This document shows, piece after piece, positions 2,578 through 61,670 of a stretch of DNA of 64,000 bases; positions within the stretch are counted from its first letter, which is position 1; each line of letters starts with the position of its first letter. A program made the position numbers and the translations under genes. A model generated the notes under the pieces. The model did not search any database. It had not been told where the DNA came from and saw nothing but the letters and a program-made list of their open reading frames with translations. The DNA lies in the sequence record PQ100635.1. One strand, written 5' to 3'. This DNA is from Escherichia phage PNJ-9.

Positions 2578-2616
2578 GTTTACAACAAGATAGGGCTATG
2601 TTATAGTAGTCCTATC
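2578..2616 (+). promoter_or_regulatory. early-promoter-like cassette with flanking inverted repeat
   Basis: GTTTAC, 18 bp, TATAGT; IR GATAGGGCTA/TAGTCCTATC around -10. Confidence 0.5.
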
Positions 2617-2635
2617 AAATTAAATGGAGTCCACA

Positions 2636-2875
2636 ATGATTTATTACGAAAGTGTTGGAACTAAAGTGGTTGCTAAAACCATTACTCGTGAAAAGTTTGC
2701 AAAGATATTCGATATGCGTTATAAAAAATCTGAACACAAAGGCATCCGATTCGAAGATGCGCACTGTACAATTTGTCCTTATAATGAAGACATAAACGGT
2801 ACAATCGTTCCATTGGTAGAGGCTTCACATGACGACCTCTGGGATGAATATAATATCGCATGTCGCGAAATTTAA
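2636..2875 (+). CDS. hypothetical protein
   Basis: ORF track 2624-2875; ATG at 2636 with GGAG 6 nt upstream, just downstream of an early-promoter cassette. Confidence 0.55.
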   Translation: MIYYESVGTKVVAKTITREKFAKIFDMRYKKSEHKGIRFEDAHCTICPYNEDINGTIVPLVEASHDDLWDEYNIACREI

Positions 2876-2900
2876 GTAATCTAAATTCGAGGAAATTATT

Positions 2901-3857
2901 ATGATGTTAGTTATTGGTTCTCGTGCACTTCACTATCACAGTCTTATTGATTCTAACGCTATCAAAAATAGTGACTGGGACTTTATTGCAGACCAAGGTT
3001 CTTGGAATGCATTCAAAAATCAAATGATGGGTGTATATGTTCATCAAGATAACCCTGATGTCCAAGTTTTCAAATGCTTCCATAATGGACGCGAAACTCA
3101 TTTTGAAGCATATATTGTTCCGGCAATCACTAATGTCCGTGAATTAGTCGGTGAACTCACTCCTGAAGATTTCACGTCTTCTTATGACCTTTTAAAATAC
3201 GCCAAGAAAAATTTGACTAAAGACCGTTTGAACGGGTTTTACTGGGCAACTCCTGAGATATGTCTTGCAATTAAAATGTCTCATCGTTTCAAGAAAAATA
3301 ATCCATTCTTTTTAAAGACTATGAACCATATTCAGTATCTTCGTGGTAAAGGTGTTACACTGAACGATGAACTTACTGAAATTATGCTGAAACGCCAGAA
3401 AGAAACTTTGAACTATGCTCACCCAGTTCTTGACACTTCTAAAAGTGCGTTCTTTAAAGATGACATCTATACATATGACCATGATACTATTCACGAAGCC
3501 ATTGCACTAACAGACCGTCCGGCTTATACGTTTTACATGAAAGACGGTTCTGAAGTCATGACCTCACGCGAGAAGTTCGAATCGTTACCAGAAATGGTCA
3601 AATTGGCCGGCGTATATGAAGAATCATGTGTACTAGCGTTAGAACGTTCTCAGATTCCTAATAACTTTGAAATTAACCCTGAAGCCAGTTTCATGATGGC
3701 ATTAGAAAAAGTCTGCACAAGCATCACCTCCGGTTGGTTCCGTGAGTTCGCTTGGGAAAATTATAGCAAAGTAGTAAGTATGTATCAAAGCTTAGGACAC
3801 GACGATTACGTCAAGCGTTTCAAACAAAATTTTCATATGGTAAAACCTTTCAAATAA
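2901..3857 (+). CDS. hypothetical protein (318 aa)
   Basis: Long ORF with GAGGAAA upstream; no family assigned. Confidence 0.65.
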   Translation: MMLVIGSRALHYHSLIDSNAIKNSDWDFIADQGSWNAFKNQMMGVYVHQDNPDVQVFKCFHNGRETHFEAYIVPAITNVRELVGELTPEDFTSSYDLLKYAKKNLTKDRLNGFYWATPEICLAIKMSHRFKKNNPFFLKTMNHIQYLRGKGVTLNDELTEIMLKRQKETLNYAHPVLDTSKSAFFKDDIYTYDHDTIHEAIALTDRPAYTFYMKDGSEVMTSREKFESLPEMVKLAGVYEESCVLALERSQIPNNFEINPEASFMMALEKVCTSITSGWFREFAWENYSKVVSMYQSLGHDDYVKRFKQNFHMVKPFK

Positions 3858-3869
3858 TTTCACCAAACT

Positions 3870-3904
3870 GTTTACAAGGTCTGTAGTTGTTGATACTATA
3901 GACC
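3870..3904 (+). promoter_or_regulatory. early-promoter-like cassette with inverted repeat
   Basis: GTTTAC, 18 bp, TACTAT; IR GGTCTGTAG/CTATAGACC. Confidence 0.45.
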
Positions 3905-3936
3905 TATCAAAACAAATGAGTGAATGGAGATACAAA

Positions 3937-4137
3937 ATGACTACTTTGAATAAACGTTTCGGTAAAGCTAAACCTGGCTGTGCAGCAGAACGTCGTTACA
4001 TTTTCGCTCAGTTAGAAGATGTAGAGTATCAGATTAATCAAGTTCACATTACTGGCATCGAGCCTATGTGTGGCCTTGAAGCTCTTCGTGAAGTTCGTGA
4101 CGGGTATCGTCGTGATATCGAAGAAATGTCAAAATAA
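3937..4137 (+). CDS. hypothetical small protein
   Basis: ORF track 3916-4137; ATG at 3937 has better spacing to GGAG. Confidence 0.5.
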   Translation: MTTLNKRFGKAKPGCAAERRYIFAQLEDVEYQINQVHITGIEPMCGLEALREVRDGYRRDIEEMSK

Positions 4138-4176
4138 GTGTACAAACTGATAGGGCTATGTTATAGTAGTCCTATT
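4138..4176 (+). promoter_or_regulatory. early-promoter-like cassette with inverted repeat
   Basis: GTGTAC, 18 bp, TATAGT; same GATAGGGCTA...TAGTCCTAT module as at 2589. Confidence 0.45.
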
Positions 4177-4195
4177 AAAACATGAGGAGAATATT

Positions 4196-4501
4196 ATGAA
4201 ATTAACAGAAACCAACCGAATTGGTCTTTTAACAATACTTGCATCACCTTTTTACGCAGCCCTTTCTGTTGCAGTATTACAAAAGGCTTACGATATGGAT
4301 GGTGTTCCTGGTTTTATATTCTTATCGCCGTTTTTGCTATTCGTTGGAGCATTGTTATTATATGCCACGACTGGTTTCGACCATAATGTCTGGGTCAATT
4401 ATAAATGTAAATTGTCTGAAGAAGAACACGCAGAAGCTCGTAAAAAAGCTATTGAATCTACCAATCTAGAAAATTTCATTAAAGAATGTCGAGGAAAATA
4501 A
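4196..4501 (+). CDS. small membrane protein, C-terminal ENFIKECR tail family
   Basis: TM helices; C-terminus STNLENFIKECRGK; GAGGAG upstream. Confidence 0.6.
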   Translation: MKLTETNRIGLLTILASPFYAALSVAVLQKAYDMDGVPGFIFLSPFLLFVGALLLYATTGFDHNVWVNYKCKLSEEEHAEARKKAIESTNLENFIKECRGK

Positions 4502-4502
4502 T

Positions 4503-5189
4503 ATGAATAGTTCTAAAGTGTTTAATAGTCAAGCTCGTGCAGTAGGTGGTTTTGCCGGCGGTATTTCTAATGATAAAATCAAGAACGAGCCTATGTTCTT
4601 CAACTGTAGTTTAGAATTTGCTTATAATAATGGCGGTCCTATTACTCGCTCTTTCATTATGAACTTGCCGGATGATTGGAACACCGACCAGGTTGTATTT
4701 GATTCACGAGTCCACATGCTGATGCCTGGTTGGTATCCTGCTATTCCTGGATATCACCATGATGACGTACCACGCCCAGATATTCCAACAGGACAACATT
4801 TTATTACTGCAGGACAACCTGATTATGACAACCCTCGTTACCATTCTGAACATATTCTTGGTCTTGTTAACGCTGATGTGTGTCCTACTCATTTTGCAAC
4901 AGGAACTGCAGAGTTCAGTCAGATTCCTGATGGCGAACTTATCTATCGCCAGTGGCACAAAGAAGTCCTCGAAAAAATCGAAAAAGGCGAACTAGAGAAA
5001 TGGGAAGCTCCGGACCGTACTCTTCTTCAGTTTGATTGGCAAACATGGCACACTGGTTCTCGTGCAATTAGTAATGGATGGCGGTGGTTCGGACGTGTAT
5101 CTCGTAATACAGACCGAGTTAAAAAGATTACCAATGAAATTCGTGTCAACGCCCAAGTTTATCTGGAATTCCCTATGGAAGGCTGGTAA
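4503..5189 (+). CDS. hypothetical protein (228 aa)
   Basis: ORF track; starts 2 nt after upstream stop. Confidence 0.6.
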   Translation: MNSSKVFNSQARAVGGFAGGISNDKIKNEPMFFNCSLEFAYNNGGPITRSFIMNLPDDWNTDQVVFDSRVHMLMPGWYPAIPGYHHDDVPRPDIPTGQHFITAGQPDYDNPRYHSEHILGLVNADVCPTHFATGTAEFSQIPDGELIYRQWHKEVLEKIEKGELEKWEAPDRTLLQFDWQTWHTGSRAISNGWRWFGRVSRNTDRVKKITNEIRVNAQVYLEFPMEGW

Positions 5190-5668
5190 TGATTAACAAT
5201 AATATAGACGATGGCAATGAAGGTATTTCATACTATTCAGTAGATTGGACAGGATGTCCATCCTACTTAGTGAAACATATTTGCCAAGAATTTAAAATCG
5301 ACCAGCCAGCAGGTATTATCGTGAACAGATACATTAATGGATATCAACCTATCGATGAAGTAATACGAACAACTCAAGCTGAGCTTGAAAAGTTTTTCAA
5401 TAAGTGCCAATGGATAACAGGATGGATTATATTTGTACCGTCAGTGTGGTTTTTTAGTACTAAGGTGAGTTCTTTCGGTTTTGTTGATATTATTGCTATC
5501 TTATTAGCATCTAGTATCATAAGTGTTGTTGGTGGCATCATTGGCGGCGGTACCGCCGCCATCATTATTAATCTTGTTAAAAGTAGTTTACAGGAACGTA
5601 AAGACAAGATAAAGGCCAAGAATAATGAAGTTGAACGTTTTATTACCGAATGCAGGAATTTGAGATGA
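5189..5668 (+). CDS. membrane protein, C-terminal ERFITECR tail family
   Basis: TAATG overlap; Gly-rich TM segment; C-terminus NNEVERFITECRNLR. Confidence 0.6.
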   Translation: MINNNIDDGNEGISYYSVDWTGCPSYLVKHICQEFKIDQPAGIIVNRYINGYQPIDEVIRTTQAELEKFFNKCQWITGWIIFVPSVWFFSTKVSSFGFVDIIAILLASSIISVVGGIIGGGTAAIIINLVKSSLQERKDKIKAKNNEVERFITECRNLR

Positions 5669-5901
5669 GTATAGCAATTTACATTAAATCGGAATCGTGT
5701 GATAGTTATCTGTACACATACGATAAAGATGTGTCAGAAGAAAAAATCAAAGACGACCTTAATATGGACCTTGATATGTTCCGTCCTATTGCAGATTACA
5801 AACTTGCGGTCTCTAATAGTGAAAGTCCATCTAAAGAAACGCGCATTGAAGAATTTATGTCCGAATTAATGGCCAAATCATGGGACCGAGATGATGAGTA
5901 A
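5665..5901 (+). CDS. hypothetical acidic protein
   Basis: ATGA overlap with upstream stop; ORF track 5650-5901. Confidence 0.5.
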   Translation: MSIAIYIKSESCDSYLYTYDKDVSEEKIKDDLNMDLDMFRPIADYKLAVSNSESPSKETRIEEFMSELMAKSWDRDDE

Positions 5902-6349
5902 GAAAAATAAAGTGAAAGAACTATCAGCAGGTATTATTTTCCTTACCGAAGATAAAGAATTATTCATGGGGCGTGTAACTGGTTCTCGTCCTAAAGGTGC
6001 ATTAGCTCATCGGTGGGATATTCCTAAAGGTCGTGTCGAGCCCGGTGAATCTCCTATCGAAGCCGCTATTCGTGAATGCGAAGAAGAAACTGGGTTTACA
6101 CAATATGACCCTGCCTTCCTGAAAGACCTAGGTGAACATCATTACTCAGACAATAAGAATATTCATCTGTTCCTATATACCATCCCTGTAGAGCACGAGC
6201 AATTCAGAAACAGTGTTTGTAATTCCTATCATACGTTCCCAGACGGACGACAGATTCCTGAATTTGATGCATTCGCTTTAATTAAACCTTCTCAGTGGGA
6301 ATATGTAATGGGCAAATCATTATATAAGGTGCTCACTACCATCCTATAA
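5891..6349 (+). CDS. nudE: Nudix hydrolase NudE
   Basis: Nudix box GRVEPGESPIEAAIRECEEETG; matches T4 NudE (e.1) position next to lysozyme. Confidence 0.9.
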   Translation: MMSKKNKVKELSAGIIFLTEDKELFMGRVTGSRPKGALAHRWDIPKGRVEPGESPIEAAIRECEEETGFTQYDPAFLKDLGEHHYSDNKNIHLFLYTIPVEHEQFRNSVCNSYHTFPDGRQIPEFDAFALIKPSQWEYVMGKSLYKVLTTIL

Positions 6350-6351
6350 GT

Positions 6352-6382
6352 AATAAATACCTCCTATAAACGTGGGAGGTAT
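6352..6382 (+). promoter_or_regulatory. RBS-sequestering hairpin with late-promoter-like TATAAA in loop, upstream of e
   Basis: ATACCTCC (6357-6364) pairs with GGAGGTAT (6375-6382) covering the SD; loop TATAAACG. Confidence 0.5.
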
Positions 6383-6383
6383 T

Positions 6384-6872
6384 ATGAATATATTTGAAAT
6401 GCTTCGTAATGACGAAGGTCTTAGACTGACTTTATACAAAGACACTGAAGGCTTTTGGACAATTGGCATAGGTCATTTAGTAACAAAGAACCCGTCTTTA
6501 GCTGTAGCTAAAGCTGAACTTGACAGAATGATCGGGCGTAAATGCAACGGTACAATTACCCTTGATGAGGCTGAAAAGTTATTTAATGAAGACGTTGATA
6601 AAGCTGTTCGCGGAATCTTGGGTAATGCTAAACTTAAACCGGTATATGATTCTTTAGATGCGGTTCGTCGATGTGCATTGGTCAATATGGTCTTCCAAAT
6701 GGGTGTAGCAGGCGTCGCTGGTTTTACTAATTCTCTTCGTATGCTTCAACAGAAACGTTGGGATGAAGCGGCAGTAAATCTAGCACAATCTAAATGGTAT
6801 CGTCAGACACCTAATCGCGCGAAACGCGTAATCTCAACATTTAAAACAGGAACTTGGAAAGCGTATATATGA
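6384..6872 (+). CDS. e: endolysin (T4 lysozyme)
   Basis: [31 protein letters not shown]... near-identical to T4 lysozyme incl. catalytic E11/D20/T26 region; GGGAGG SD. Confidence 0.95.
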
Positions 6873-7150
6873 AAACATATAGCGAATTTTTATCAGAATC
6901 TATTCTTAACGAAGCTACTGACACATTTGCAACTAAGCTAGGTGCAGCTTTGGTTGAAGCTGAAAGTCTATTAGCACGTATTTCTGAACTTGCTAGTAAG
7001 ATAGATACTCGCAAATTTGAACGTACCAGCGATATCGTTAAGCTTGAAGCCTTGTTGCGTATGTGCGATAAACCGGAAGAAATCGCTAAGAACGGCTCGC
7101 TGATGAAACAACGTCTTGAAAAATATATTTCAGGCGCTTCAGAAAAATAG
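6869..7150 (+). CDS. capsid-targeting-sequence (CTS) protein, internal-protein-like
   Basis: N-terminus [10 protein letters not shown] resembles T4 internal-protein CTS MKTYQEFIAEA; ATGA overlap with e. Confidence 0.55.
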
Positions 7151-7151: not shown

Positions 7152-7203
7152 GTTTACTTCCTCCAAGGACTTTGATACTATACATTCATCAACTACTTGG
7201 AGG
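7152..7203 (+). promoter_or_regulatory. early-promoter-like cassette; inverted repeat includes denV SD
   Basis: GTTTAC, 18 bp, TACTAT; IR CCTCCAAG/CTTGGAGG. Confidence 0.5.
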
Positions 7204-7208
7204 AAATT

Positions 7209-7622
7209 ATGACCCGTATCAATTTAACACTTGTTTCTGAACTGACCGACCAACATCTTATGGCTGAGTATCGTGAATTACCACGCGTATTTGGTGCAGT
7301 CCGTAAACATGTTCAAAACGGTAAACGTGTAAAGGATTTTAAAATCTCTCCAACATTTATCTTAGGCACAGGTCATGTAACATTCTTTTACGACAAACTC
7401 GAATTTTTACGTTTACGTCAAATCGAGCTAATCGCCGAATGCTTGAAACGTGGTTTCAAAATCAAGGACACGACTGTCCAAGATATTTCCGACATCCCTG
7501 CCGAATTTCGTAATAATTATGTCCCGTCCGAAGCGTCCATTGCGATAAGTCAAGCACGCTTAGATGAAAAAATTGCTCAGCGCCCGACTTGGTACAAATA
7601 CTATGGTAAATCAATTTACTAA
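7209..7622 (+). CDS. denV: endonuclease V, pyrimidine-dimer DNA glycosylase
   Basis: [31 protein letters not shown] matches T4 DenV N-terminus; 138 aa. Confidence 0.93.
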
Positions 7623-7892: not shown

Positions 7893-7922
7893 GTTTACGC
7901 TTAAGTATTAATATGGTATAAT
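7893..7922 (+). promoter_or_regulatory. early-promoter-like element
   Basis: GTTTAC, 18 bp, TATAAT. Confidence 0.45.
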
Positions 7923-7952
7923 TACTCTATCAAAACAAACAAGGAAACAAAA

Positions 7953-8255
7953 ATGAAAACTTATCAAGAATTTATCACCGAAGCGCGAGTAAGTGCAGGT
8001 AAATTAGAAGCCGCTATAAATAAAAAGGCCCATTCATTTCATGATTTGTCCGATAAAGACCGTAAGAAACTTGTAAGCCTTTATATTGACAAAGAGCGTA
8101 TTCTCGCTCTTCCTGGCGCTAATGAAGGTAAACAGGCCAAGCCTTTGAATGCTGTCGAAAAGAAAATTGATAACTTTGCTTCTAAATTCGGTATGTCTAT
8201 GGATGACCTTCAGCAAGCGGCTATCGAAGCAGCTAAAGTAATTAAAGGTAAATAA
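7953..8255 (+). CDS. internal protein (CTS-bearing head cargo)
   Basis: N-terminal MKTYQEFITEAR CTS motif; 100 aa, lysine-rich. Confidence 0.75.
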   Translation: MKTYQEFITEARVSAGKLEAAINKKAHSFHDLSDKDRKKLVSLYIDKERILALPGANEGKQAKPLNAVEKKIDNFASKFGMSMDDLQQAAIEAAKVIKGK

Positions 8256-10310: not shown

Positions 10311-10545
10311 AGACATCAAAGGCTACAAGCCACATACCGATGATAAAATCAGTAAAGTGAACGCTATTAAAGACGCAGAAGTTCGTTTAGGACTTATTCT
10401 GGACGCCCTGGCAGAAGAAGCATTATCAGCAAATACTCCTGAAGCTCTGACGGCTTTGTCCCAATTGAACTGTGCTAAAGAACGCCTAAAGGAAGCTAGT
10501 ATGTGGGCTTGTCGTGCGGTATTTCGACCAGAGGAAAAATACTAA
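10300..10545 (+). CDS. hypothetical protein
   Basis: Internal ATG of ORF 10132-10545 overlapping upstream stop. Confidence 0.5.
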
Positions 10546-10844
10546 TGGCTCAAATCCTATCAGGCTTTGGAACTCATTATGAAGCATCTCGACGCATAAC
10601 TGAAAGCAATCCTTTTGGCCTTGTTCCGAAGCACAAGAAAATTCAAAGCCTTGATGACTTTGAGAATCGCCTATGGGCCCTCTTTAATGAGTACAAGGCA
10701 TATCTGAAAGAAGACGCTGACGATTGTCTTGAAGAAGATGAGATTGCGTATTACGAACAACGCCTTGAACAGCTCAAGAACTTCCACCAGGTTCGTGACG
10801 AAGTATCTAAAGCAGTTAAAAAGTTAATTCCTTTCAAAGAGTAG
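10545..10844 (+). CDS. hypothetical protein
   Basis: TAATG overlap; ORF track 10503-10844. Confidence 0.5.
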
Positions 10845-10894
10845 TTTACTTCTCCTCTAGTTGTGTTACTATAGACCTGTCAACTAGAGGAGAA
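10844..10894 (+). promoter_or_regulatory. early-promoter-like cassette; 14-bp inverted repeat includes regB SD
   Basis: GTTTAC, 17 bp, TACTAT; IR TTCTCCTCTAGTTG/CAACTAGAGGAGAA. Confidence 0.5.
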
Positions 10895-10901
10895 ATCAAA
10901 A

Positions 10902-11360
10902 ATGACTATCAATTCTGACGTTTTTATCCGCCGTAATAAACTCCGTCGAATCTTTGAAACGGAGTTCCGCAAAATAAATGCCGGTATAAAAGATGCTGCA
11001 AAGTCTCTTGGACTACCAGGCTTTCATATCAAGTATTCTCAACATCTCTTAGATCGTGCTATCCAGAGAGAAATAGATGAGAACTACGTTTTTGAATTAT
11101 TTCGTAAAGTAAAAAATCATGTTAAAGAAGTTGCAGAATTTTTATCAATGCCGGCACGTCCAGATGTTGATGAAGATTTTGTCGAAGGTGTCGAATATCG
11201 CCCAGGCCGTTTAGAAATAACTGATGGAAATCTTTGGTTAGGACTTACAGTTTGTCGCGAAAATCCAGCATTCAAAATGAAGACTCTTCAATGCAGAATG
11301 GCTATTATTAACAATAAACGACTACCAGGAAAAGCTTCTAAAGCAGTGATTAAAATCTAG
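10902..11360 (+). CDS. regB: endoribonuclease RegB
   Basis: MTINSDVFIRRNKLRR...SQHLLDRAIQREIDE...RPGRLEITDGNLWLG matches T4 RegB along whole length. Confidence 0.93.
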   Translation: MTINSDVFIRRNKLRRIFETEFRKINAGIKDAAKSLGLPGFHIKYSQHLLDRAIQREIDENYVFELFRKVKNHVKEVAEFLSMPARPDVDEDFVEGVEYRPGRLEITDGNLWLGLTVCRENPAFKMKTLQCRMAIINNKRLPGKASKAVIKI

Positions 11361-14436: not shown

Positions 14437-14463
14437 GCCCCTTCCTTATGGTTGGGGCTTTTT
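14437..14463 (+). terminator. intrinsic terminator-like hairpin after rI
   Basis: GCCCC ... GGGGC stem then TTTTT. Confidence 0.5.
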
Positions 14464-14474
14464 GGCATCTATCA

Positions 14475-14526
14475 GTTTACTTCTCCTCAGGTTGTGTTAT
14501 AGTAGTCCTTACTTACTAGAGGAGAA
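14475..14526 (+). promoter_or_regulatory. early-promoter-like cassette with inverted repeat
   Basis: GTTTAC, 17 bp, TATAGT; IR TCTCCTC/GAGGAGA. Confidence 0.45.
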
Positions 14527-14530
14527 CGTT

Positions 14531-14710
14531 ATGTCACGTAAAGAAAAAATTTCTAAGTTAATGTTTTTGATTGAAGAGTACGCTAATGCGGTATCTGATT
14601 GGGAAAATGCTCATGGTTGCGAAGATGGAGACATCGACATTAACAGAGCTATGAAAAAGATGGCCGAAGCCCACTCCGAATTGCAAATGTATGTTAACGA
14701 GATTATGTGA
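14531..14710 (+). CDS. hypothetical protein
   Basis: ATG at 14531 after GAGGAG inside promoter cassette. Confidence 0.5.
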   Translation: MSRKEKISKLMFLIEEYANAVSDWENAHGCEDGDIDINRAMKKMAEAHSELQMYVNEIM

Positions 14711-14717: not shown

Positions 14718-14927
14718 ATGCTTTACGATTATACTGGAAAATCTGAAGACGGTGTACTTGAACTTTTACCTGAAAGCGCTGAAGATGACGATATGACGAC
14801 GGTGATGTTTTGTAAAAATGGTCCTGGGGATAAGGGATGGATTTATCTTCGTCAAGAAAATGACCTAATTGTTTTGGACCCTAAACAAGTTGAAGAACTT
14901 TATCAACATTTAAAACACAATCGGTAG
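14718..14927 (+). CDS. hypothetical protein
   Basis: ATG after GAGGA; ORF track 14691-14927. Confidence 0.5.
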   Translation: MLYDYTGKSEDGVLELLPESAEDDDMTTVMFCKNGPGDKGWIYLRQENDLIVLDPKQVEELYQHLKHNR

Positions 14928-14961
14928 TTTACATCTTGGTAGGACTATGTTATAGTAGTCC
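14927..14961 (+). promoter_or_regulatory. early-promoter-like cassette with inverted repeat
   Basis: GTTTAC, 18 bp, TATAGT; IR TAGGACTA/TAGTCCTA. Confidence 0.45.
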
Positions 14962-14984
14962 TATCAAAACAAACGGAGAACAAA

Positions 14985-15095
14985 ATGAAACTTTTGCTTA
15001 TCGCTTATGTTGTAGTACAATACAATTATCCGATGTTTACTTATAACATGGTAAACGGCATAGTGAATCTTATTGAAACGAGTATGGTAAAATGA
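14985..15095 (+). CDS. small hydrophobic peptide (36 aa), not on ORF track
   Basis: ATG preceded by GGAG (7 nt), downstream of promoter cassette; ATGA-coupled to next small ORF. Confidence 0.35.
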   Translation: MKLLLIAYVVVQYNYPMFTYNMVNGIVNLIETSMVK

Positions 15096-17656: not shown

Positions 17657-17691
17657 CCTATCAAAACGAAATGAGTAAATTGGAGAATAAA

Positions 17692-18810: not shown

Positions 18811-19098
18811 ATGGATTTTATGCAAAAAATTAAAGCCGCAGTAGAACTCTATGCTCATCGTATGGTTAGTTCTACGATGCAATATAGCGAGGAGGTTCGC
18901 CAGGACTCTTCCTTGAAAGGAAAAACTAAAGCCTTAATTACCTTAGACCGTCTACAAAAGAATGCCCTAGAGTTGTTCCAGTACGACAAGGATGCATATA
19001 AGAAAGAACAGGAAGAGAAACTTAAATCCGAAAAATTACAGAAAATTCCGAAGTCGGTTTGGTTCAGTGGAAAAAATACCGAAAAAAGTTTCTTTTAG
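18811..19098 (+). CDS. hypothetical protein
   Basis: ORF track. Confidence 0.55.
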   Translation: MDFMQKIKAAVELYAHRMVSSTMQYSEEVRQDSSLKGKTKALITLDRLQKNALELFQYDKDAYKKEQEEKLKSEKLQKIPKSVWFSGKNTEKSFF

Positions 19099-19100
19099 TT

Positions 19101-19136
19101 GTTTACAAGGTCTATGGTTGTGTTATTATAGACCTA
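19101..19136 (+). promoter_or_regulatory. early-promoter-like cassette with inverted repeat
   Basis: GTTTAC, 17 bp, TATTAT; IR AGGTCTAT/ATAGACCT. Confidence 0.45.
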
Positions 19137-19156
19137 TCAACTACTGGAGGTAAAAC

Positions 19157-19684
19157 ATGAACGCTAAAGATATTTTCAACCTGGTAAATTATAACGACGG
19201 TAAATTTAAATCTGAAGCACAAAGCAAGTTCTTTAATGACGTTGCTTATGGTAACGAGATTACCGTGGACGGAGGTCAGATTTTCAAATCTCGCTGGAAT
19301 TGGATTGCTATCATCGATTCAGTTGGAATTGTGGAAGTCTACAAAAACACTAACAAAAAACGTACATTATTCTGGTCTCGTGAAACTAACGAGCAGTACA
19401 AAAAGGATAAAGCATCTCGTTTATCTAAAGTAACCCAGGAAGATATCGAGTTTATCAAGAAAGATATCGAGATGTACGAAAATTTAATCGCTGAAGACCA
19501 GGCAGTACTCGATAAGTTTGATGAAATTAAAGCTTCTCGTGAAATCCCTGACTTCATGAAAGAAACAGTAAATGAACGATACGCTCTCACTTCAGAACGT
19601 ATTGCAAACTATACAAAACAGAAAGCAGAACGTATTAGTACTCTTCGGAAATTTGAAGAACGTTTAAAGACGGTTCACGCATAA
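19157..19684 (+). CDS. hypothetical protein
   Basis: GGAGG upstream. Confidence 0.6.
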   Translation: MNAKDIFNLVNYNDGKFKSEAQSKFFNDVAYGNEITVDGGQIFKSRWNWIAIIDSVGIVEVYKNTNKKRTLFWSRETNEQYKKDKASRLSKVTQEDIEFIKKDIEMYENLIAEDQAVLDKFDEIKASREIPDFMKETVNERYALTSERIANYTKQKAERISTLRKFEERLKTVHA

Positions 19685-19746: not shown

Positions 19747-20742
19747 ATGAGCATTACATCTGATGCGGTAAAACATGAAATTAACGGTTTATGTGCTTCA
19801 CAGATTAAAGTGTGGTTTAAAGACCATAATGATCGCAGAGCACTTAATTATGAGCAAATTGCTATCCAAGTTCATCAATTACTGACTAGTAAATTTGATT
19901 TTCATATGCCGTCTGAAATCTATACTAATCTACCGCGAGCGCTTATTAAAGCGTGTAAAGGTTACGGAAAATCAATGGCCGATGGAATCTTCAGCGCGCT
20001 GAATAAACTTAACGTTCTGTCGATGATTAACTCTAACAACATCCTGCGTAATCTAGGACGTACTGATTTGTTCGGTCGGGAACAGTGTAAAATGCCTTTG
20101 AAATGGATTGTTGCTCATCTTAACGAGAACCAAACACGTTTTATGGCCGTATCAGCACGCTTACAAATGGGCCTAGATCGTCAGATGAACTTTAAAACTC
20201 ATCCACGTTATTCAGGTTCAACAGACTTTTATAAATGTGAGCTTCAAAAGGTTGCAGGTAAAACTGTCTTAGTAGTTCGTGTAACGTTTGAAGGACGACG
20301 ACAAGGATATTTTGACCTAATCGGCTCTGGTCTTAAACATTGCGGATTTATTGACGAAGTTGATATCAAGCGAGACAGCATTGGATACCGTATTGGATAT
20401 GTTTGTACTCTTAAAGAAGAGATTTCAGGACCAGTACCAGGACTAAAAGACGTTAGATATAAAGACGAGCTCGTTGAAGAAATAAAAGAAGTTGAATATG
20501 ATATCAACCAAGAAGATGCTCTTAAAGACCTTATTGATGAACTGAACCAAGACGTTATTCCGGTTCAGAAATTTGAATCAAAACATGCTGAGCAAATCAA
20601 ATACTTTGAAGCTTTGATTAACGAACTTAATGTAACTATTCAACAGACTGACGATGAAATCTCGCGATTAGCAGGCTTAAACGGTAAAAATAAAACAGAA
20701 CGAGCTAATCTTATTCAGGTAGTAAAACTTCTTAAGGAATGA
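19747..20742 (+). CDS. hypothetical protein with C-terminal coiled coil
   Basis: 331 aa; predicted coiled-coil tail; MotA-box middle promoter upstream. Confidence 0.6.
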   Translation: MSITSDAVKHEINGLCASQIKVWFKDHNDRRALNYEQIAIQVHQLLTSKFDFHMPSEIYTNLPRALIKACKGYGKSMADGIFSALNKLNVLSMINSNNILRNLGRTDLFGREQCKMPLKWIVAHLNENQTRFMAVSARLQMGLDRQMNFKTHPRYSGSTDFYKCELQKVAGKTVLVVRVTFEGRRQGYFDLIGSGLKHCGFIDEVDIKRDSIGYRIGYVCTLKEEISGPVPGLKDVRYKDELVEEIKEVEYDINQEDALKDLIDELNQDVIPVQKFESKHAEQIKYFEALINELNVTIQQTDDEISRLAGLNGKNKTERANLIQVVKLLKE

Positions 20743-20771
20743 TGTACAACCAAGGATGGTTGGAGTATAAT
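20742..20771 (+). promoter_or_regulatory. early-promoter-like cassette (duplicate of 21762)
   Basis: TGTACAACCAAGGATGGTTGGAGTATAAT. Confidence 0.45.
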
Positions 20772-20797
20772 AAATTTTTCAACATGAGGAATATAAA

Positions 20798-21757
20798 ATG
20801 GCTTCTATTACACGTAGAGAACTTATCAAAGAATTTACCTCGAACGCATATACCCCAGGACCTAATCCTATCCGTATGCCTGTAAAGACTCCTGAAGAGA
20901 TTGAGGAAATCTGTTCATATTATGGGATTAATTCTCGTAAGTTTACTCAATTTGAATGCGTTACTAACACACCCGTTAAAGAGTTCATTAAAAATGGTGA
21001 GTTCAGCCGTTTATTGGCCAAACAGAAACTTCGTAATTTTTGTATCGGCGGCAACGGACAATATTTTGCTAAACAGTTCAGAAATAACCTTAACAATCTG
21101 ATGGCCATTGCTTCTCGTATTCGTCCTCAAGCAATTAACATGAAACATTTGAAATATACTTACGATAAGTTAGAAATCATGGTTATCAGTGAGAACGAGT
21201 TCACTCTTACGTATAAACCTAAGAATGATAACGTTGCTCGTGTATTCCACCAAGCGTTGGAAGTTTTAGGTGATAATATCCACCAGATTAAAGCAATTTA
21301 TTCTCGTGAGCTTAATATTATCAACCCTATCAAGAATAAGGGCCATATCGCTATCCAGGCTCGTGTATCTGTTGGTAAAAAGGTTCCTGCGCCATGGTGG
21401 CACAAAGACTCTGAATACTATCAAAATCTTAAAAAGGAAAATGCAACGTTCGAAGCATCGCTTACTGGGACCCCAATTGAACAGGCCGAAGTCCTAAGTG
21501 CTTATTCTACTTCGGGTAAATCAATGTTTAAAGGTTTGCCAAATGTGTGCAAACTGTCTGCAGTAAAACTAAATGTTTCTAATGACCTTCTTCCGGCCGA
21601 AGATTACCATTACAATCAAATCAAGGCCACTATGGACCAACTGTCTGTTGAACTTGACAAAGCACAAGCTAAGCTTCGTGATGCTCAAAGTGTTGTAACG
21701 AATCTCCAGTTGCAGTATTCTAAACTTTTTAACGCAATGAATGCATTAAAATCATAA
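20798..21757 (+). CDS. hypothetical protein with C-terminal coiled coil
   Basis: 319 aa; near-identical promoter cassette to next gene. Confidence 0.6.
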   Translation: MASITRRELIKEFTSNAYTPGPNPIRMPVKTPEEIEEICSYYGINSRKFTQFECVTNTPVKEFIKNGEFSRLLAKQKLRNFCIGGNGQYFAKQFRNNLNNLMAIASRIRPQAINMKHLKYTYDKLEIMVISENEFTLTYKPKNDNVARVFHQALEVLGDNIHQIKAIYSRELNIINPIKNKGHIAIQARVSVGKKVPAPWWHKDSEYYQNLKKENATFEASLTGTPIEQAEVLSAYSTSGKSMFKGLPNVCKLSAVKLNVSNDLLPAEDYHYNQIKATMDQLSVELDKAQAKLRDAQSVVTNLQLQYSKLFNAMNALKS

Positions 21758-21761: not shown

Positions 21762-21791
21762 GTTTACAACCAAGGATGGTTGGAGTATAAT
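21762..21791 (+). promoter_or_regulatory. early-promoter-like cassette (duplicate of 20742)
   Basis: GTTTACAACCAAGGATGGTTGGAGTATAAT. Confidence 0.5.
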
Positions 21792-21819
21792 GAATCTATC
21801 TTAACGAGAGGAAAATATT

Positions 21820-22770
21820 ATGACACGTTCACATTACATTGATTATTTTGCAGGTCTTATCGCTAATGTTCATGCCCAACGTGCTTCTGGTTCATTAGGA
21901 TTTGATGTTCCACACCGAGATGTAGTAAGTGGTATTCTTCGCGATTTTGGTACATATACCGGCCAAGAAAATCATATCTGTAAAGATACTCAAAATGCGT
22001 ATTCTCATTCATTAGGGACACTGCTTCAATGGTTCAAACGTTCTCGTTTATTATCTTCTACTGTAGCTCGCGATAACATTAAAAACTTTATGAAGCCGAG
22101 CTTTATTAAATCTGTGACATCTAAAACCGATTTGGTTGAATTCACTATTGTTAATGATGTTAAAAAGACTCATTTGGCTGATTGGTTATCTACCATTCCT
22201 GAAACTAAATTTGCTGATAAATTTGCTTGTGAATTCAATAACCAAGTGAATATGCTTTTTAAACATTCTCGTAAATTATTCACAGGTGGCGATGATCGTA
22301 CAAATACAGTTCATGTTAAAGATTGGGTTACTGCAGTATTCAAACCAACCGGTAATGGTAACGCATCATTATCAATTGATATCCAGGTTCCTTATTACTA
22401 CTCACGTAATCTCGGTACCATGAAAGCCGAAGAAATTAATAAGCACAACAAAACCATTCGTTCGCTGTCTTATAAACTTCGCATGATGTTAAGAATCATG
22501 GACGTGGTAGAAATGTATGATGAAACCGAAGATAACGGTTCGATGTTATTCAGTTCTCGTATTCAAATTAAGCTGAAGAATCCTAACGAGTATAAGCCTA
22601 AGCCTATTAAAGAACCTAAAGCAGAAAAGGTTGATATCATGGCTGAAGAACGTGAGTACCTCAAATCTCGTCTGAAAGAAGTCGAAGCCCAGATTGCAGA
22701 ACAAACTAAATCGTTAAAAGCTCTGAATGCGAAAGCGGACGGTTTACGAAATGCCATTGAGGTTTTATAA
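21820..22770 (+). CDS. hypothetical protein with C-terminal coiled coil
   Basis: 316 aa; coiled-coil tail. Confidence 0.6.
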   Translation: MTRSHYIDYFAGLIANVHAQRASGSLGFDVPHRDVVSGILRDFGTYTGQENHICKDTQNAYSHSLGTLLQWFKRSRLLSSTVARDNIKNFMKPSFIKSVTSKTDLVEFTIVNDVKKTHLADWLSTIPETKFADKFACEFNNQVNMLFKHSRKLFTGGDDRTNTVHVKDWVTAVFKPTGNGNASLSIDIQVPYYYSRNLGTMKAEEINKHNKTIRSLSYKLRMMLRIMDVVEMYDETEDNGSMLFSSRIQIKLKNPNEYKPKPIKEPKAEKVDIMAEEREYLKSRLKEVEAQIAEQTKSLKALNAKADGLRNAIEVL

Positions 22771-25002: not shown

Positions 25003-25034
25003 TATAAATACCCTTATCTAATATGGTAAGGGTT
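25003..25034 (+). promoter_or_regulatory. late promoter TATAAATA plus RBS-sequestering hairpin upstream of gene 49
   Basis: TATAAATA at 25003-25010; CCCTTA/TAAGGG inverted repeat with 3' arm overlapping the SD. Confidence 0.55.
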
Positions 25035-25038
25035 TATT

Positions 25039-29773: not shown

Positions 29774-29796
29774 CCAGGTGCCGCCTGGTCTTCTTT
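29772..29796 (+). terminator. intrinsic terminator-like hairpin
   Basis: GACCAGG-TGCCG-CCTGGTC then TTCTTT. Confidence 0.5.
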
Positions 29797-29882
29797 ATCT
29801 CATTTCTAATATAATCCATTGGAATCTTCACTTCACTATCTCCTTGTGCCCCTCTCAAATCGAAAATATTTTCATAAAACAG

Positions 29883-53428: not shown

Positions 53429-53433
53429 TAAAA

Positions 53434-53453
53434 AGGAGACTTCGGTCTCCTTT
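53434..53453 (+). terminator. intrinsic terminator after gene 41
   Basis: GGAGAC-TTCG-GTCTCC then TTTCGGGGTTT. Confidence 0.55.
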
Positions 53454-53516
53454 CGGGGTTTACATCTCCCTCTAGGCATGATATGATGTACTTACACTAA
53501 CCGAGAGGAAAACATT

Positions 53517-53891
53517 ATGAATATGTCTCAAGCAATTTTTACTGCAATCACCGAAAACACAACTGTTGAAGTAGTTTCTCCGCTGGCAACCTACGTTATT
53601 CTTGCTCCTAAAACTATTGTATCTCGTATGGAAAACATGGGCAAACGTATCGTACAAATTGTTGGAGCCGGAAATCAAAAACTTGATTATCTGCGAACCA
53701 TCAAAGCTTATGAACATTTCCAACTCGAAAAAGGTTCTCCTATCCAGGTAGAACTCGTAAATGGTGATATCGTTCGAGCAATGTTCCATCATTTCTATGC
53801 ATTGAATGACCCATCTAAAGCAGTTCGTTTAATTGCATACGACGCAAACCAAAACGAAATCAACGCAGATGTATCTAAATTACGTTTTTAA
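53517..53891 (+). CDS. hypothetical protein
   Basis: GAGAGGAAA upstream. Confidence 0.6.
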   Translation: MNMSQAIFTAITENTTVEVVSPLATYVILAPKTIVSRMENMGKRIVQIVGAGNQKLDYLRTIKAYEHFQLEKGSPIQVELVNGDIVRAMFHHFYALNDPSKAVRLIAYDANQNEINADVSKLRF

Positions 53892-53941
53892 GTTTACTTC
53901 TCCAGTAGTTGTGTTATTATAGACTTATCAACTACTGGAGA
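53892..53941 (+). promoter_or_regulatory. early-promoter-like cassette with 13-bp inverted repeat
   Basis: GTTTAC, 17 bp, TATTAT; IR TCTCCAGTAGTTG/CAACTACTGGAGA. Confidence 0.5.
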
Positions 53942-53946
53942 ACAAA

Positions 53947-54264
53947 ATGAAAACCATCGATTGTAAAGCAGAATTTAAGATTTTTTATCACGGTTCAAGT
54001 AGTTCAGCTAACATCGAAAACATGCTTTGTCCTCCTGAGGAAACAGGAGTTCTGTCTGAAACTGGACGTAAGAAAAACTTGGATCGTGTATTCTTTACTG
54101 AAGATATCGGTTTAGCAAAGATTTATGCAGGACGAGCAGCACGCTCTTATGGAGGTGAACCACGTCTCTATCGAGTAATTTCTCCGGTAGACGTAGTTCA
54201 AATGAATAATACTAAAGGTGCTACAGTTTATCACGCTGAATGGGCATTTTGCGAGGAAATATGA
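53947..54264 (+). CDS. hypothetical protein
   Basis: ORF track; downstream of promoter cassette. Confidence 0.6.
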   Translation: MKTIDCKAEFKIFYHGSSSSANIENMLCPPEETGVLSETGRKKNLDRVFFTEDIGLAKIYAGRAARSYGGEPRLYRVISPVDVVQMNNTKGATVYHAEWAFCEEI

Positions 54265-55407: not shown

Positions 55408-55441
55408 TGTTTACATTATAGATGGACTATGGTATAGTAGT
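55408..55441 (+). promoter_or_regulatory. early-promoter-like cassette with inverted repeat
   Basis: GTTTAC, 19 bp, TATAGT; IR GGACTA/TAGTCC. Confidence 0.45.
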
Positions 55442-55467
55442 CCTATCAAATCAACTAAGGAGTTAAA

Positions 55468-55761
55468 ATGAAAAAGTTATCATTGGCAGCAATCTTACTT
55501 GCGGTATCATGTGCACCAGCTCCAGTTACAGCAGGTTATGATAAAGACCTCTGTGAGTGGTCAATGACTGCAAATCAAGAAGATGTTGAACAACAAATCT
55601 TCTCTGATATCATGAACATCACTAAACGAGACCGTCCTAATATGGTTAATAAAGTTGTTGAACAACTTAAGTCTGGTGGTATTATGCAGTACAATTATGT
55701 TTTGTATTGTGACCCTAATTTCGATAACAAAGATATCGTAACCGAAATCACAGGTGAATAA
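55468..55761 (+). CDS. periplasmic protein, spackle (Sp)-like by size and synteny
   Basis: 97 aa with signal peptide MKKLSLAAILLAVSCAPAPVTAG; between 41 and 61 as T4 sp. Confidence 0.5.
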   Translation: MKKLSLAAILLAVSCAPAPVTAGYDKDLCEWSMTANQEDVEQQIFSDIMNITKRDRPNMVNKVVEQLKSGGIMQYNYVLYCDPNFDNKDIVTEITGE

Positions 55762-59791: not shown

Positions 59792-59967
59792 ACAAAATAG
59801 TAAAATGGTTTAAAAGCTTGAATGATGGAGTCGAACCAGAAGATTGGCTGGATGTTCTTGAAGAGAATATGGCTAAAGAATTCCAGAAACACGAAGAGAA
59901 ACTCATCGAAGATGAAGGCGAACGTATTGTAAAACTTTATATGGGTGAACCATCGAGGAAATTATAA
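59788..59967 (+). CDS. small acidic protein (59 aa), not on ORF track
   Basis: ATGA overlap upstream and TAATG overlap downstream. Confidence 0.4.
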   Translation: MNKIVKWFKSLNDGVEPEDWLDVLEENMAKEFQKHEEKLIEDEGERIVKLYMGEPSRKL

Positions 59968-60431
59968 TGGATGCTATGTTATTTAAAATGTATTTGCTTG
60001 AAGCCAAATCGTTTAAACATATACCAGTAGAAGATAAGACTCCACTAGAAATAGCTATTCTCATTAACAAAAGTCTAAATAATCCGCAATATATCGTAGA
60101 AGAATTCTGTAAATTGCAGATTCCTAAAGGTTACAAAATTCGTGTAGAGCGAGTTGGAGCTATTACTCATTCTAAAAATTCTCCGTTTAGTCTTGAAGAA
60201 GGCATAAAGGACTTAGGTTATGAATCTACGGAAAATGCAGTTTATGTGAATCCTGAAAAGCGTTTAGACTTGTTTGAAAAGCGAGACCATAAGTATTTTG
60301 CCAAAAAATACTTTATTACATCATTAGCAGATTTAACCCATTTGCAACGAGCTATTTGGAAATTTTTTAAGACAAAAGGTGTAGCGCTAGAAACATTCTC
60401 TGAACCTGCTAGTTTTTATCTCGGTGAATAA
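59967..60431 (+). CDS. hypothetical protein
   Basis: ORF track. Confidence 0.6.
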   Translation: MDAMLFKMYLLEAKSFKHIPVEDKTPLEIAILINKSLNNPQYIVEEFCKLQIPKGYKIRVERVGAITHSKNSPFSLEEGIKDLGYESTENAVYVNPEKRLDLFEKRDHKYFAKKYFITSLADLTHLQRAIWKFFKTKGVALETFSEPASFYLGE

Positions 60432-60432
60432 T

Positions 60433-60612
60433 ATGGACTTGATGAGTATGTTTGATGAGCCTGAAGTTGAGGCTCCTAAAGTGCATCGTAGTGAACTTGT
60501 TGATGAACTAGATAGTATTATACAACGACACGGCTTTAGTTTACCTGTTGAAGCCCTGAAAGACCTTGCCTCTTATTATGACGACCCTCCACCATGGAGT
60601 CCTTGGAAATGA
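60433..60612 (+). CDS. hypothetical acidic protein
   Basis: ORF track 60424-60612. Confidence 0.45.
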   Translation: MDLMSMFDEPEVEAPKVHRSELVDELDSIIQRHGFSLPVEALKDLASYYDDPPPWSPWK

Positions 60613-60773
60613 AAGAGAAATTTAAAGAGAAATTCTTACTAGAAATCAAGGAAAAAGACTTTGAGACATGGTATCGAATGGTGAAAGGGTTGACGTTGCT
60701 TTTTAAAGCATCCTTATTCATGTTAGAACAACCTGGCCCTGATGGTCCTTTAGTAGGAAAGCTTAAAAAGTAG
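60609..60773 (+). CDS. possible small ORF (54 aa), not on ORF track
   Basis: ATGA overlap with upstream stop; reading not fully verified. Confidence 0.25.
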   Translation: MKEKFKEKFLLEIKEKDFETWYRMVKGLTLLFKASLFMLEQPGPDGPLVGKLKK

Positions 60774-60801
60774 TTTACATTCCCTCCTCTCGTGTTATGA
60801 T
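60774..60801 (+). promoter_or_regulatory. early-promoter-like element
   Basis: GTTTAC, 16 bp, TATGAT. Confidence 0.4.
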
Positions 60802-60901
60802 AGGCTTATCTTTAAATGGAGGTCTATCATGACATGTCAATCTGAACTTCAAGAACGCGAATACCTAACAAAATCATTCATTTAAAAATGTTGAATTTTT
60901 A

Positions 60902-60931
60902 GTGTACAAACTCTTCCGATGATGATACTAT
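60902..60931 (+). promoter_or_regulatory. early-promoter-like element
   Basis: GTGTAC, 18 bp, TACTAT. Confidence 0.4.
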
Positions 60932-60959
60932 ACCTTTATCAACCACAGGAGAAACCTAA

Positions 60960-61568
60960 ATGTTTATGCCGTATAACGAGTGTGAAATTGAAGAAATGGT
61001 TCGTCGTGCTCAATGCCCAGACTATCAGGATGAACTTCAGTACAAAATCGATGAGCAATTCAGCGACATTGAACAAAGTGTACTATGGCAATGTATGGAA
61101 AACAAGCCAGACAGCATCCAACAAGATTTAAGTGCAATTGTTCGTAGAAATTGGACGTCTTCTGTTCCTGAGACAATGTATCGTGGAATCTCTAAGAAAA
61201 CTATGGCCACACTCGATGATAAAGGCGTTGGTAGTATTATTAAATTTGATAGAGTAATGAGCTTTAGTCCGGTGTTTGGTGTAGCACGTAACTTCGCTTC
61301 GTATAATTTTTACGGAACATTTAATATGTTCTGCATCAAAGATGCACCATTTGCTTTCAACTTCCGTGAACATATGCTTAACATGATTCTGGCTGCGCCA
61401 TCTTGTGAGTTCAATGGAGCTTTCCCTGAAGCGACAAGACGGTCTAATGCTAGACTTATATCTGACGAATGTGAATTTATGCTCCCTATAGGGACTACAC
61501 TGCGTGTAGATTCTATTATTCAAGATGGACGTTATACAATCTGGAATCTGACTATTGTCAGTTACTGA
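60960..61568 (+). CDS. mono-ADP-ribosyltransferase (ModA/ModB-like)
   Basis: R-S-ExE order: YRG, SFSPV, ECEF; 202 aa; near srd/dda as T4 mod genes. Confidence 0.55.
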   Translation: MFMPYNECEIEEMVRRAQCPDYQDELQYKIDEQFSDIEQSVLWQCMENKPDSIQQDLSAIVRRNWTSSVPETMYRGISKKTMATLDDKGVGSIIKFDRVMSFSPVFGVARNFASYNFYGTFNMFCIKDAPFAFNFREHMLNMILAAPSCEFNGAFPEATRRSNARLISDECEFMLPIGTTLRVDSIIQDGRYTIWNLTIVSY

Positions 61569-61642
61569 CTGAATTGGAATAACCGGATGGAACTCAGAAC
61601 CATTATAACACATAAAAAATTAAAGCATTTTATGAAAAAGAG

Positions 61643-61670
61643 TGTACACTACCTGAGGGCATGATATTAT
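61643..61670 (+). promoter_or_regulatory. early-promoter-like element
   Basis: GTGTAC then GATATTATAGG. Confidence 0.4.

Follow-up and report, generated by a model that had tools for sequence, protein, structure and literature searches.

A window of 64,000 nucleotides from Escherichia phage PNJ-9 (sequence record PQ100635.1; the whole stretch that was analysed, to which all positions refer) carries short, repeated intergenic cassettes in which an early promoter stands before the next open reading frame (ORF), and about half of these cassettes also contain an inverted repeat. The cassettes are PeSLs, the units described by Arbiol 2010 and Comeau 2014: they bring together a promoter, a stem-loop and a Shine-Dalgarno (SD) sequence with its ATG, they are repeated in variable regions, and they are associated with indels. 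With moderate confidence, we read the repeats as the PeSL-type early-gene cassettes of an RB69-like T-even phage, one variant of which, here called class A, masks the SD on RNA that reads through from upstream. A preliminary description of this DNA had proposed such hairpins for many of the cassettes; what it observed is confirmed in part, and its interpretation is likewise supported in part.

The window is the early region of a T4-type, RB69-like phage in which early transcription follows the + strand. On this strand the motif GT[TG]TAC-N16-19-TAnnnT has 27 matches, against 2 on the − strand, and a looser motif scan gave 42 (+) against 14 (−), with 15.3 ± 4 in Markov-simulated sequence. Some 21 of the sites are intergenic, with a stop codon immediately upstream and an ORF to follow, in agreement with the roughly 20 intergenic GTTTAC/GTGTAC promoters reported in the preliminary description; five matches fall within ORFs (8806, 22742, 24147, 30584 and 45947). 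TG usually precedes the −10 boxes of the cassettes, and the distance from the −10 box to the ATG clusters at 26–30 nt. A generic sigma-70 consensus scan was also tried and found 76 sites versus 68.8 ± 7.9, no promoter excess; only the T-even-specific GTTTAC pattern is informative. Early promoters of T4, which belong to the UP/−35/TGn/−10 class (PMC2988021), have the same GTTTAC −35 box, 17–18 nt spacer, TGn-extended −10 box and C-rich −3 to −1 positions, and are likewise sited before early genes and novel ORFs; the corresponding T4 strand holds 14 sites of the same motif between 40 and 73 kb. For RB69, 57 early promoters have been predicted, in which GTTTAC occupies −36 to −31 and C is found at −3 to −1 (PMC1524935). 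Having the GTTTAC −35 box and the TGn-extended −10 box on the right strand and in the right position, the motif sites of PNJ-9 are these published T-even early promoters. A literature search for a start-site map of T4 or RB69 found none, and the predicted start site was taken as the 7th nucleotide after the −10 box. The cassettes are confined to the variable flanks of the window (1.7–30.6 kb and 53.4–61.7 kb), and the core replication block between them (30.6–53.4 kb; 55, 47, 46, 45, 44, 62, regA, 43, uvsX and 41) has no strict early cassette, save the intragenic match at 45947.

A cassette begins at or just past the stop codon of the upstream ORF with a strong sigma-70 promoter of the early type (−35 GTTTAC, 17–18 nt spacer, TGn-extended −10); its predicted start site falls in the conserved CCTATCAA region, and a predicted 5′ untranslated region (UTR) of about 20 nt ends in a GGAG-type ribosome-binding site, followed by the ATG. 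At the predicted start site the cassette 5′ UTRs have CCTATCAAC(TAC) in common, those of Aeromonas-phage-like contigs included. The SD together with its spacer often equals the RegB/S1 target GGAGRAYARAA (GGAGAACAAAA, GGAGAATAAAA), with or without a stem, for example at 53938–53948, 17677–17687 and 14974–14984.

A stem-loop is found in about 12 of the roughly 22 intergenic cassettes, and nine of these have fold z-scores (ViennaRNA against dinucleotide shuffles) of −2.6 to −5.3; the remainder are stemless or weak, about 10 having no meaningful repeat. The stems come in three arrangements. In class A, the 5′ arm (TTCTCC, TTCCTCC or TCCTC) lies right after the −35 box, and the 3′ arm contains the SD and ends 3–8 nt before the ATG. 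In class B, the arms immediately flank the −10 box, enclosing a loop of the form TGnTAnnnT and leaving the SD free. In the third arrangement, the stem lies wholly inside the promoter spacer. The predicted start site falls between the arms in every class.

Five cassettes, all on the + strand, have strong class A stems. The best example (53892–53949) has an exact 14-bp stem, 53898–53911/53929–53942, whose 3′ arm carries GGAG; transcription is predicted to start at ~53927, ahead of the ATG at 53947 (z = −5.3). The regB cassette (10844–10904; −21.6 kcal/mol, z = −3.6) has an equally exact 14-bp stem, 10850–10863/10881–10894, with GAGGAG in the 3′ arm, a predicted start at ~10879 and its ATG at 10902; both repeats had been quoted in the preliminary description. 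At denV (7152–7211, z = −3.7), the 5′ arm (7158–7167) occupies the spacer and the 3′ arm (7196–7205) includes GGAGG, with the predicted start at ~7188 and the ATG at 7209. The cassette at 29882–29941 (z = −2.6) pairs 29889–29898 with 29922–29931, which contains GAGGA, and has an inner stem in addition. Cassette 19101 (19088–19159; −22.7 kcal/mol, z = −4.0) nests two stems: an inner class B stem, 19108–19118/19125–19135, and an outer class A stem whose 5′ arm (19088–19099) lies upstream of the −35 box and whose partner (19143–19156) includes the SD GGAGG at 19144–19148. Weak class A stems at 14475 and 53458 bring to seven the cassettes in which the 3′ arm holds the SD. The ‘many’ of the preliminary description thus becomes five strong cases and two weak ones; it does not extend to six class B stems, two spacer-internal stems and the ~10 cassettes without a repeat.

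With the predicted start site between the arms, RNA made from the cassette's own promoter would lack the 5′ arm, the geometry that had been proposed for these cassettes, and the helix would form only in RNA begun upstream. In class A, the −35 box is immediately followed by an anti-SD-like run, TTCTCC or CCTCC, which would serve as the 5′ arm, with the SD as the 3′ arm, such that read-through RNA would bury the ribosome-binding site and the gene would be poorly translated; the untranslated stretch would likely be prone to Rho-dependent polarity. RNA from the own promoter would start shortly ahead of the 3′ arm and leave translation free. This would be the logic already proven for T4 e, soc, 49 and I-TevI, except that an early promoter takes the place of the late one. 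The preliminary description had supposed the SD to be folded in read-through RNA and free in the cassette's own RNA; folding predictions bear this out for class A, where the probability that the SD is unpaired rises from 0.01 in the long RNA to 0.81 in the own RNA at 53892, and from 0.10 to 0.65 at 7152. Class B and spacer-internal stems cannot work in this way; present only in read-through RNA and with the SD free, they might act as attenuators or 3′-end structures. We favour SD masking for class A because the SD and its complement are the outermost conserved pairs and because the helices are as stable as that of gene e, which has a 100-fold effect in T4: the class A leader energies, −17.8 to −22.7 kcal/mol, match or exceed the −16.3 kcal/mol of the PNJ-9 e hairpin. 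Class A probably acts by masking with secondary Rho-dependent polarity, and polarity would reconcile masking with the attenuator idea of the PeSL authors.

The stems are specific to their partners and exceed chance expectation within the window. Five perfect Watson-Crick stems of 8 bp or more cross the −10 box, against 0.47 in shuffled sequence and 0.86 when arms are swapped between cassettes; three are 10 bp or longer, against 0.03 and 0.13, respectively. Helices of at least 8 bp cover the SD in 8 of 21 cassette genes versus 12 of 116 other genes, and those 12 include e, 49 and the nrdD endonuclease.

The comparison was extended to relatives by retrieving from IMG/VR the loci orthologous to those of regB, denV and the conserved 53947 gene. 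Pooled with the cassettes of the window and of T4, they gave 125 non-redundant cassettes; the choice of loci started from three genes with hairpins in the window, and since the set contains orthologues its counts do not represent independent events. In this set, perfect stems reach 8 bp or more in 36 cassettes versus 5.1 ± 2.1 under arm swapping, and 10 bp or more in 18 versus 0.9. In 21 of 123 cassettes, the 6-nt SD window has its exact reverse complement upstream of the same cassette's start site (5.0 ± 2.1 expected). The pooled probability of an unpaired SD is 0.29 in the long RNA, 0.76 in the own RNA and 0.39 when the upstream sequence is shuffled (Wilcoxon p = 8e-6), and 30% of cassettes reach an empirical p ≤ 0.05 in the pooled SD-pairing test. 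Since a MAFFT alignment of the regB, denV and 53947 cassettes left the 3′ arms out of register, we used an anchored pair count with slid-partner controls. Where CTCC follows the −35 box and the SD is GGAG (32 cassettes), Watson-Crick pairs fill 60% of the cells at the eight inner positions in register versus 20–26% with a slid partner, and each inner stem position is occupied by 2–4 pair types.

The regB class A helix is kept across lineages that differ in inner sequence: TAGTTG/CAACTA in the window, TTGACTG/CAGTTAA in the T4 group (with two G-U pairs), and TTTATG/CATAAA and TGTAAG/CTTACA in two further lineages. The regB orthologues of two lineages form a class B stem in its place, and that of the most distant lineage lacks a helix. 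At denV, the SD is paired with a segment upstream of the predicted start in most lineages, the partner being located either in the spacer (CTCCGTTTG/CAAACGGAG, TCTCCTGTAG/CTACAGGAGA) or in the −10/discriminator region (ATGATGTCTTCC/GGAGGACATCAT, ATGTCCTCCTA/TAGGAGGACAT). Alignment of cassettes across related phages had been suggested in the preliminary description, and in these orthologues the pairing is indeed kept with different sequences; the regB and denV series, with their swapped-arm and slid-partner controls, indicate that a gate-type helix is maintained among relatives by compensatory change. In the denV orthologues L080, L088–L090 and L101–L102 (~6001 minus 45 to 6003), the 5′ arm consists of the −10 box and discriminator and the 3′ arm extends over the SD and ATG, an arrangement (for example ATGATGTCTTCC/GGAGGACATCAT) that is not seen in the PNJ-9 window.

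Bridging stems are rare behind terminators: 2 of 21 cassettes preceded by a terminator have one, versus 48 of 104 without a terminator (p = 0.0014). Two cassettes of the window fit this exclusivity. Cassette 14475 follows a terminator-like hairpin (14437–14465, after rI; the whole unit spans 14437–14533, + strand) and has only an 8-bp class A stem, 14481–14488/14519–14526, with a fold score that is not significant (z = −0.6). Cassette 53458 follows a terminator-like hairpin with a T-run (53432–53453, the unit spanning 53432–53519, + strand), and its SD pairing is weak (z = −1.7, again not significant). Orthologues of the 53947 gene that have an upstream terminator retain a 5–6 bp remnant or no 5′ arm. 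The exclusivity implies that the stems matter for RNA arriving from upstream and argues against a purely DNA-level role; together with the covariation at regB and denV, it fits a role in read-through RNA.

Several points weigh against SD masking, to which the choice of loci for the pooled set belongs. Masking is not general, applying to about a quarter of the cassettes, and half of the stems miss the SD. As a group, cassette genes are no less accessible at the SD than other genes (0.43 versus 0.43, p = 0.92), and we rejected masking as a general property of the cassettes. The start sites, on which the geometry depends, are predictions. The three remaining points, namely the activity of a related stem-loop in RB49, the closeness of upstream stop codons and the kinds of mismatch found in the stems, each lead to a different explanation.

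In a transcriptional fusion, one RB49 stem-loop showed terminator-like activity that needs no SD masking, cutting lacZ as strongly as rrnB T1 (PMC2839356). The stem-loops could accordingly be terminators or attenuators that act on polymerase arriving from upstream and insulate the modules, with the overlap of the SD incidental. Class B and spacer-internal stems, which cannot mask an SD, would be accommodated by this explanation, and the near absence of bridging stems behind a canonical terminator (the 2 of 21 versus 48 of 104 above) is what would be expected if the two were alternatives. No T-run, however, follows any cassette stem, the tails being A-rich (ATCAAAACAAA, CAAAATG), and a consensus scan calls none of the cassette stems terminator-like. 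The stems of the window are AT-rich and 8–14 bp long, unlike the polyG/polyC stems of RB49, and termination gives no reason why the outermost conserved pairs of class A should be the SD and its complement. We consider termination or attenuation rather unlikely, although it would merge partly with SD masking if an untranslated cistron triggers Rho-dependent polarity.

The upstream stop codons at 7152, 10844 and 53892 (7148–7150, 10842–10844 and 53889–53891) sit only 5–7 nt before the 5′ arm, and the stop at 19101 lies inside the outer arm. A terminating ribosome could thus open the outer pairs, and the class A helix would then enforce translational coupling rather than block translation: the ribosome that ends the upstream ORF would melt the 5′ arm and free the SD, and the downstream gene would be translated only with its upstream neighbour. 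A masking hairpin opened by an upstream ribosome is an established coupling mechanism. The −35 box, however, abuts the stop codon in nearly all cassettes, whether or not they have a stem, which points to genome compaction as the source of this proximity, and no upstream ORF ends close to 14475 or 29882. The arrangement at the e leader is similar (nudE stops at 6347–6349, the arm begins at 6356), yet the T4 orthologue of this leader blocks translation 100-fold (PMC3014915). Coupling is in our view an unlikely account of class A.

Non-Watson-Crick positions inside the stems are G:T in 7 cases and A:C in 6, no RNA-specific signal, which leaves room for a structure at the DNA level. The inverted repeats would in that case form cruciforms or single-strand hairpins that modulate the promoters, for example in early shut-off, or stimulate recombination between cassettes. 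The class B arms are symmetric about the −10 box, the cassettes are recombination points, and the mechanism by which early promoters are shut off is unexplained (PMC3014915), all of which would suit such a role. It does not predict that stems should be few behind upstream terminators, that class A should be anchored on the SD, or that the start site should always lie between the arms. Arm sequences also vary among cassettes, which makes a sequence-specific dimeric DNA-binding protein unlikely, and the one crossover observed lies at the −35 hexamer, outside the stem. We give a DNA-level function little credence.

We give less still to a protective role, in which the helix would shield the GGAG of internal ribosome-binding sites in read-through RNA from RegB/S1 or other RNases while promoter-proximal RNA stays sensitive to RegB. 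The SD and spacer of cassettes do match GGAGRAYARAA, as in GGAGAACAAAA at 53938–53948, the most conserved class A helix belongs to regB itself, and RegB requires single-stranded RNA and is readily inhibited by structure (PMC1702504). RegB-type sites are nevertheless equally present in cassettes that have no stem over the SD, such as 17625 and 14927, and several class A SDs (7152 and 29882) match the RegB consensus poorly. Resistance of T4 denV is due to sequence 3′ of the GGAG, and a graft with an A-rich tail was cut efficiently in vivo (PMC1702504).

SD masking in read-through RNA thus remains the reading that we prefer for class A. More tentatively, it may be T-even-wide: the spacers of many immediate-early promoters might double as anti-SD arms, with about a quarter of early genes, denV and regB among them, translated only from own-promoter RNA and silent on read-through. 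This would be a genome-wide gate on translation set by the start point of the transcript, with covariation across genera and interchangeable with upstream terminators. If class A helices do mask the SD in this way, they would explain how each early gene is kept to the output of its own promoter in a phage where strong promoters stand every few hundred bases and read-through is heavy. A dosage-sensitive product, for instance the RegB nuclease, would then be expressed only during the first minutes of infection. We found no description of promoter spacers acting as anti-SD arms at early promoters in the PeSL papers or in reviews of T4 post-transcriptional control, and older T4 literature may hold one.

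Hairpins over the SD are also present at three leaders associated with late promoters, two of which (e and 49) had been noted in the preliminary description. The e leader (6353–6386, + strand) has a 12-bp helix, 6356–6367/6372–6383, that covers the SD up to the ATG at 6384, with the late-promoter-like AATAAATA at 6353–6360 (z = −4.05). The gene 49 leader (25003–25041, + strand) has a late promoter, TATAAATA, at 25003–25010 and a helix at 25010–25018/25025–25033 (z = −2.7). The third precedes a homing-endonuclease ORF inside nrdD (26250–26297, + strand), where a helix at 26250–26260/26280–26290 lies over the SD and TATAAATA is found at 26258–26265 (z = −6.8). All three are directly orthologous to T4 leaders, those of e, 49 and I-TevII. 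The hairpin logic of e and 49 has been textbook T4 biology since the 1980s. In T4, the e hairpin lowers lysozyme synthesis on the long RNA 100-fold, and a review of how the SD is sequestered at e, soc, 49 and I-TevI, and released through a late promoter within the hairpin, covers late-promoter cases only (PMC3014915). The nrdD gene of PNJ-9 (25509–28371) is split by the homing-endonuclease ORF (26295–27065) into ORFs 25509–26054 and 27040–28371; an Rfam gathering scan of the window reported no group I intron there.

The remaining cassettes, all on the + strand, leave the SD free or have little structure. Besides the inner stem of 19101, class B comprises 2578–2638 (−35 box 2578–2583, −10 box 2602–2607, stem 2589–2598/2607–2616, SD free, z = −3.7), 3870–3939 (stem 3877–3887/3895–3905, z = −3.7), 4138–4198 (−35 GTGTAC, stem 4148–4158/4167–4177, z = −3.4), 14927–14987 (stem 14936–14947/14956–14967, z = −3.4) and, weakly, 55409–55470 (stem 55424–55429/55438–55443), for a total of six; the fold scores of four lie between −3.4 and −3.7, and that of 55409 is not significant (−1.5). 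Spacer-internal stems are found in a variant cassette with the −35 box ATGTAC (20742–20800, stem 20747–20752/20757–20762) and in the similar cassette 21762–21822 (stem 21767–21772/21777–21782). The ipII cassette (7893–7955) has no significant stem, and the motif and stem scan classed as stemless or weak those starting at 1690, 8258, 17625, 54669, 55098, 59292, 60773, 60902 and 61642. Terminator-like GC-rich hairpins with T-runs lie at 14437–14465 (after rI), 29773–29800 (after nrdH), 53432–53453 (before cassette 53458) and 443–460 (bidirectional).

Near-identical cassettes at different loci, also reported in the preliminary description, are present in two pairs: 2578 and 4138 are alike at 42 of 52 positions and 20742 and 21762 at 39 of 52, each pair with a 27-nt identical run. 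Tandem gene duplication was rejected as the source of these shared cores, the downstream proteins of each pair being unrelated. The suggestion that the cassettes move or recombine as units is supported by comparison with close relatives. Relative L069 (94–95% identical; its positions 2918–2924) lacks exactly window positions 3876–4138, one promoter plus a 66-aa ORF (3937–4137), so that cassette 3870 forms the left edge of the missing module and cassette 4138 its right edge. In its place L069 has a hybrid cassette, in which the left flank and −35 box of cassette 3870 are joined to the body of 4138, placing the crossover at or near the −35 hexamer. Breakpoints of homology fall within cassette spans in 5 of 15 cases, versus 0.64 expected (p = 3e-4). 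Being alike over about 60 nt, the cassettes also act as recombination points at which promoter-plus-gene modules are inserted, deleted or swapped. The ORF upstream of regB (10545–10844) is exchanged for an unrelated ORF in 95%-identical relatives (L003, 5729–5940); the left junction of this replacement is an overlapping stop/start, TAATG, and the right junction lies 4 nt before the regB −35 box. This mobility is the modular shuffling described for PeSLs (PMC2839356, PMC4122927). The 60-nt units are thereby also the crossover points at which promoter-plus-gene modules pass between phages, which bears on the annotation and engineering of therapeutic T4-like phages.

Two further differences from relatives were noted. 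Homology breaks at 7984, 31 nt into the ipII ORF, and a second time at 8355/8768, ahead of the following internal-protein-like gene; relatives have in common the cassette and the first ~10 codons of ipII, and the remainder of the gene is swapped. These breakpoints resemble the polymorphism of the internal-protein locus (Repoila 1994) mentioned in PMC4122927. A replacement that distinguishes the window (14788–14886, 98 nt) from PNJ-6 (24788–25148 of contig L001, 360 nt, with different small ORFs) was considered as a cassette-bounded indel and rejected, since neither edge lies inside a cassette span; its right edge is 41 nt upstream of cassette 14927.

The window shares 99% identity with Escherichia phage PNJ-6 and 98% with HX01, two members of the genus Mosigvirus (RB69 group); in its overall layout it is the reversed counterpart of T4 from ~72 kb down to ~10 kb. 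The gene order is nudE, e, denV, ipII, regB, vs, tk, rI, the nrdC cluster, 49, nrdD, 55, 47/46, 45, 44, 62, regA, 43, uvsX, 41 and 61. Rfam and tRNA scans of the window gave no matches, and PHROGs gave no function for class A cassette genes besides denV and regB.

Both the cassettes and the hairpin logic have already been published, and our result is mostly confirmatory; the part that is possibly under-described is the class A variant, whose mechanism we infer. The closest known system is that of the PeSLs, which have the same repeated intergenic unit of ~60–100 bp; it begins at the stop codon upstream, takes in a sigma-70-type early promoter and a stem-loop, and ends with the SD and ATG. They show the same concentration in variable regions, with none in core blocks, and mark insertions, deletions and replacements between close relatives; excised mini-circles formed between neighbouring cassettes also count among the hallmarks of PeSLs. 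PeSLs have been described for RB49/phi1, T4/PST and KVP40/nt-1 (PMC2839356, PMC4122927), and the cassettes of the window place them in the RB69 group. The PeSL papers distinguish five stem positions, all ending before the start site, whereas in the window the 3′ arm is the SD itself for a quarter of the cassettes. Their authors read the stems as terminators or attenuators, with no mention of translation or of RB69, and the cassette stems of the window lack a U-tract. Intrinsic terminators are likewise intergenic hairpins after a gene, from which the cassette stems differ in having no U-tract, in being AT-rich and in not being called by a generic scan. Published descriptions of T4 and RB69 early promoters do not treat complementarity of the spacer to the 5′ UTR, the feature that sets class A apart.

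The second comparison is with T4 e, soc, 49 and I-TevI and the related mobE and segB, in which the SD is paired in RNA from a distal promoter, the proximal start lies inside or after the 5′ arm, and only the proximal RNA is translated (PMC3014915). In the window, the SD or AUG lies within a predicted helix of upstream-started RNA at e, 49, the nrdD endonuclease, 7152, 10844, 19101, 29882 and 53892, but not in class B or stemless cassettes. A late promoter, TATAAATA, is found inside the hairpin at 49 and the endonuclease, with a near match at e (AATAAATA), and is absent from the cassettes. In the T4 cases, the late promoter delays expression until late in infection; in the cassettes, an immediate-early sigma-70 promoter takes its place and its spacer supplies the 5′ arm, such that the class A gate, unlike the late delay of T4, would confine translation to the early burst.

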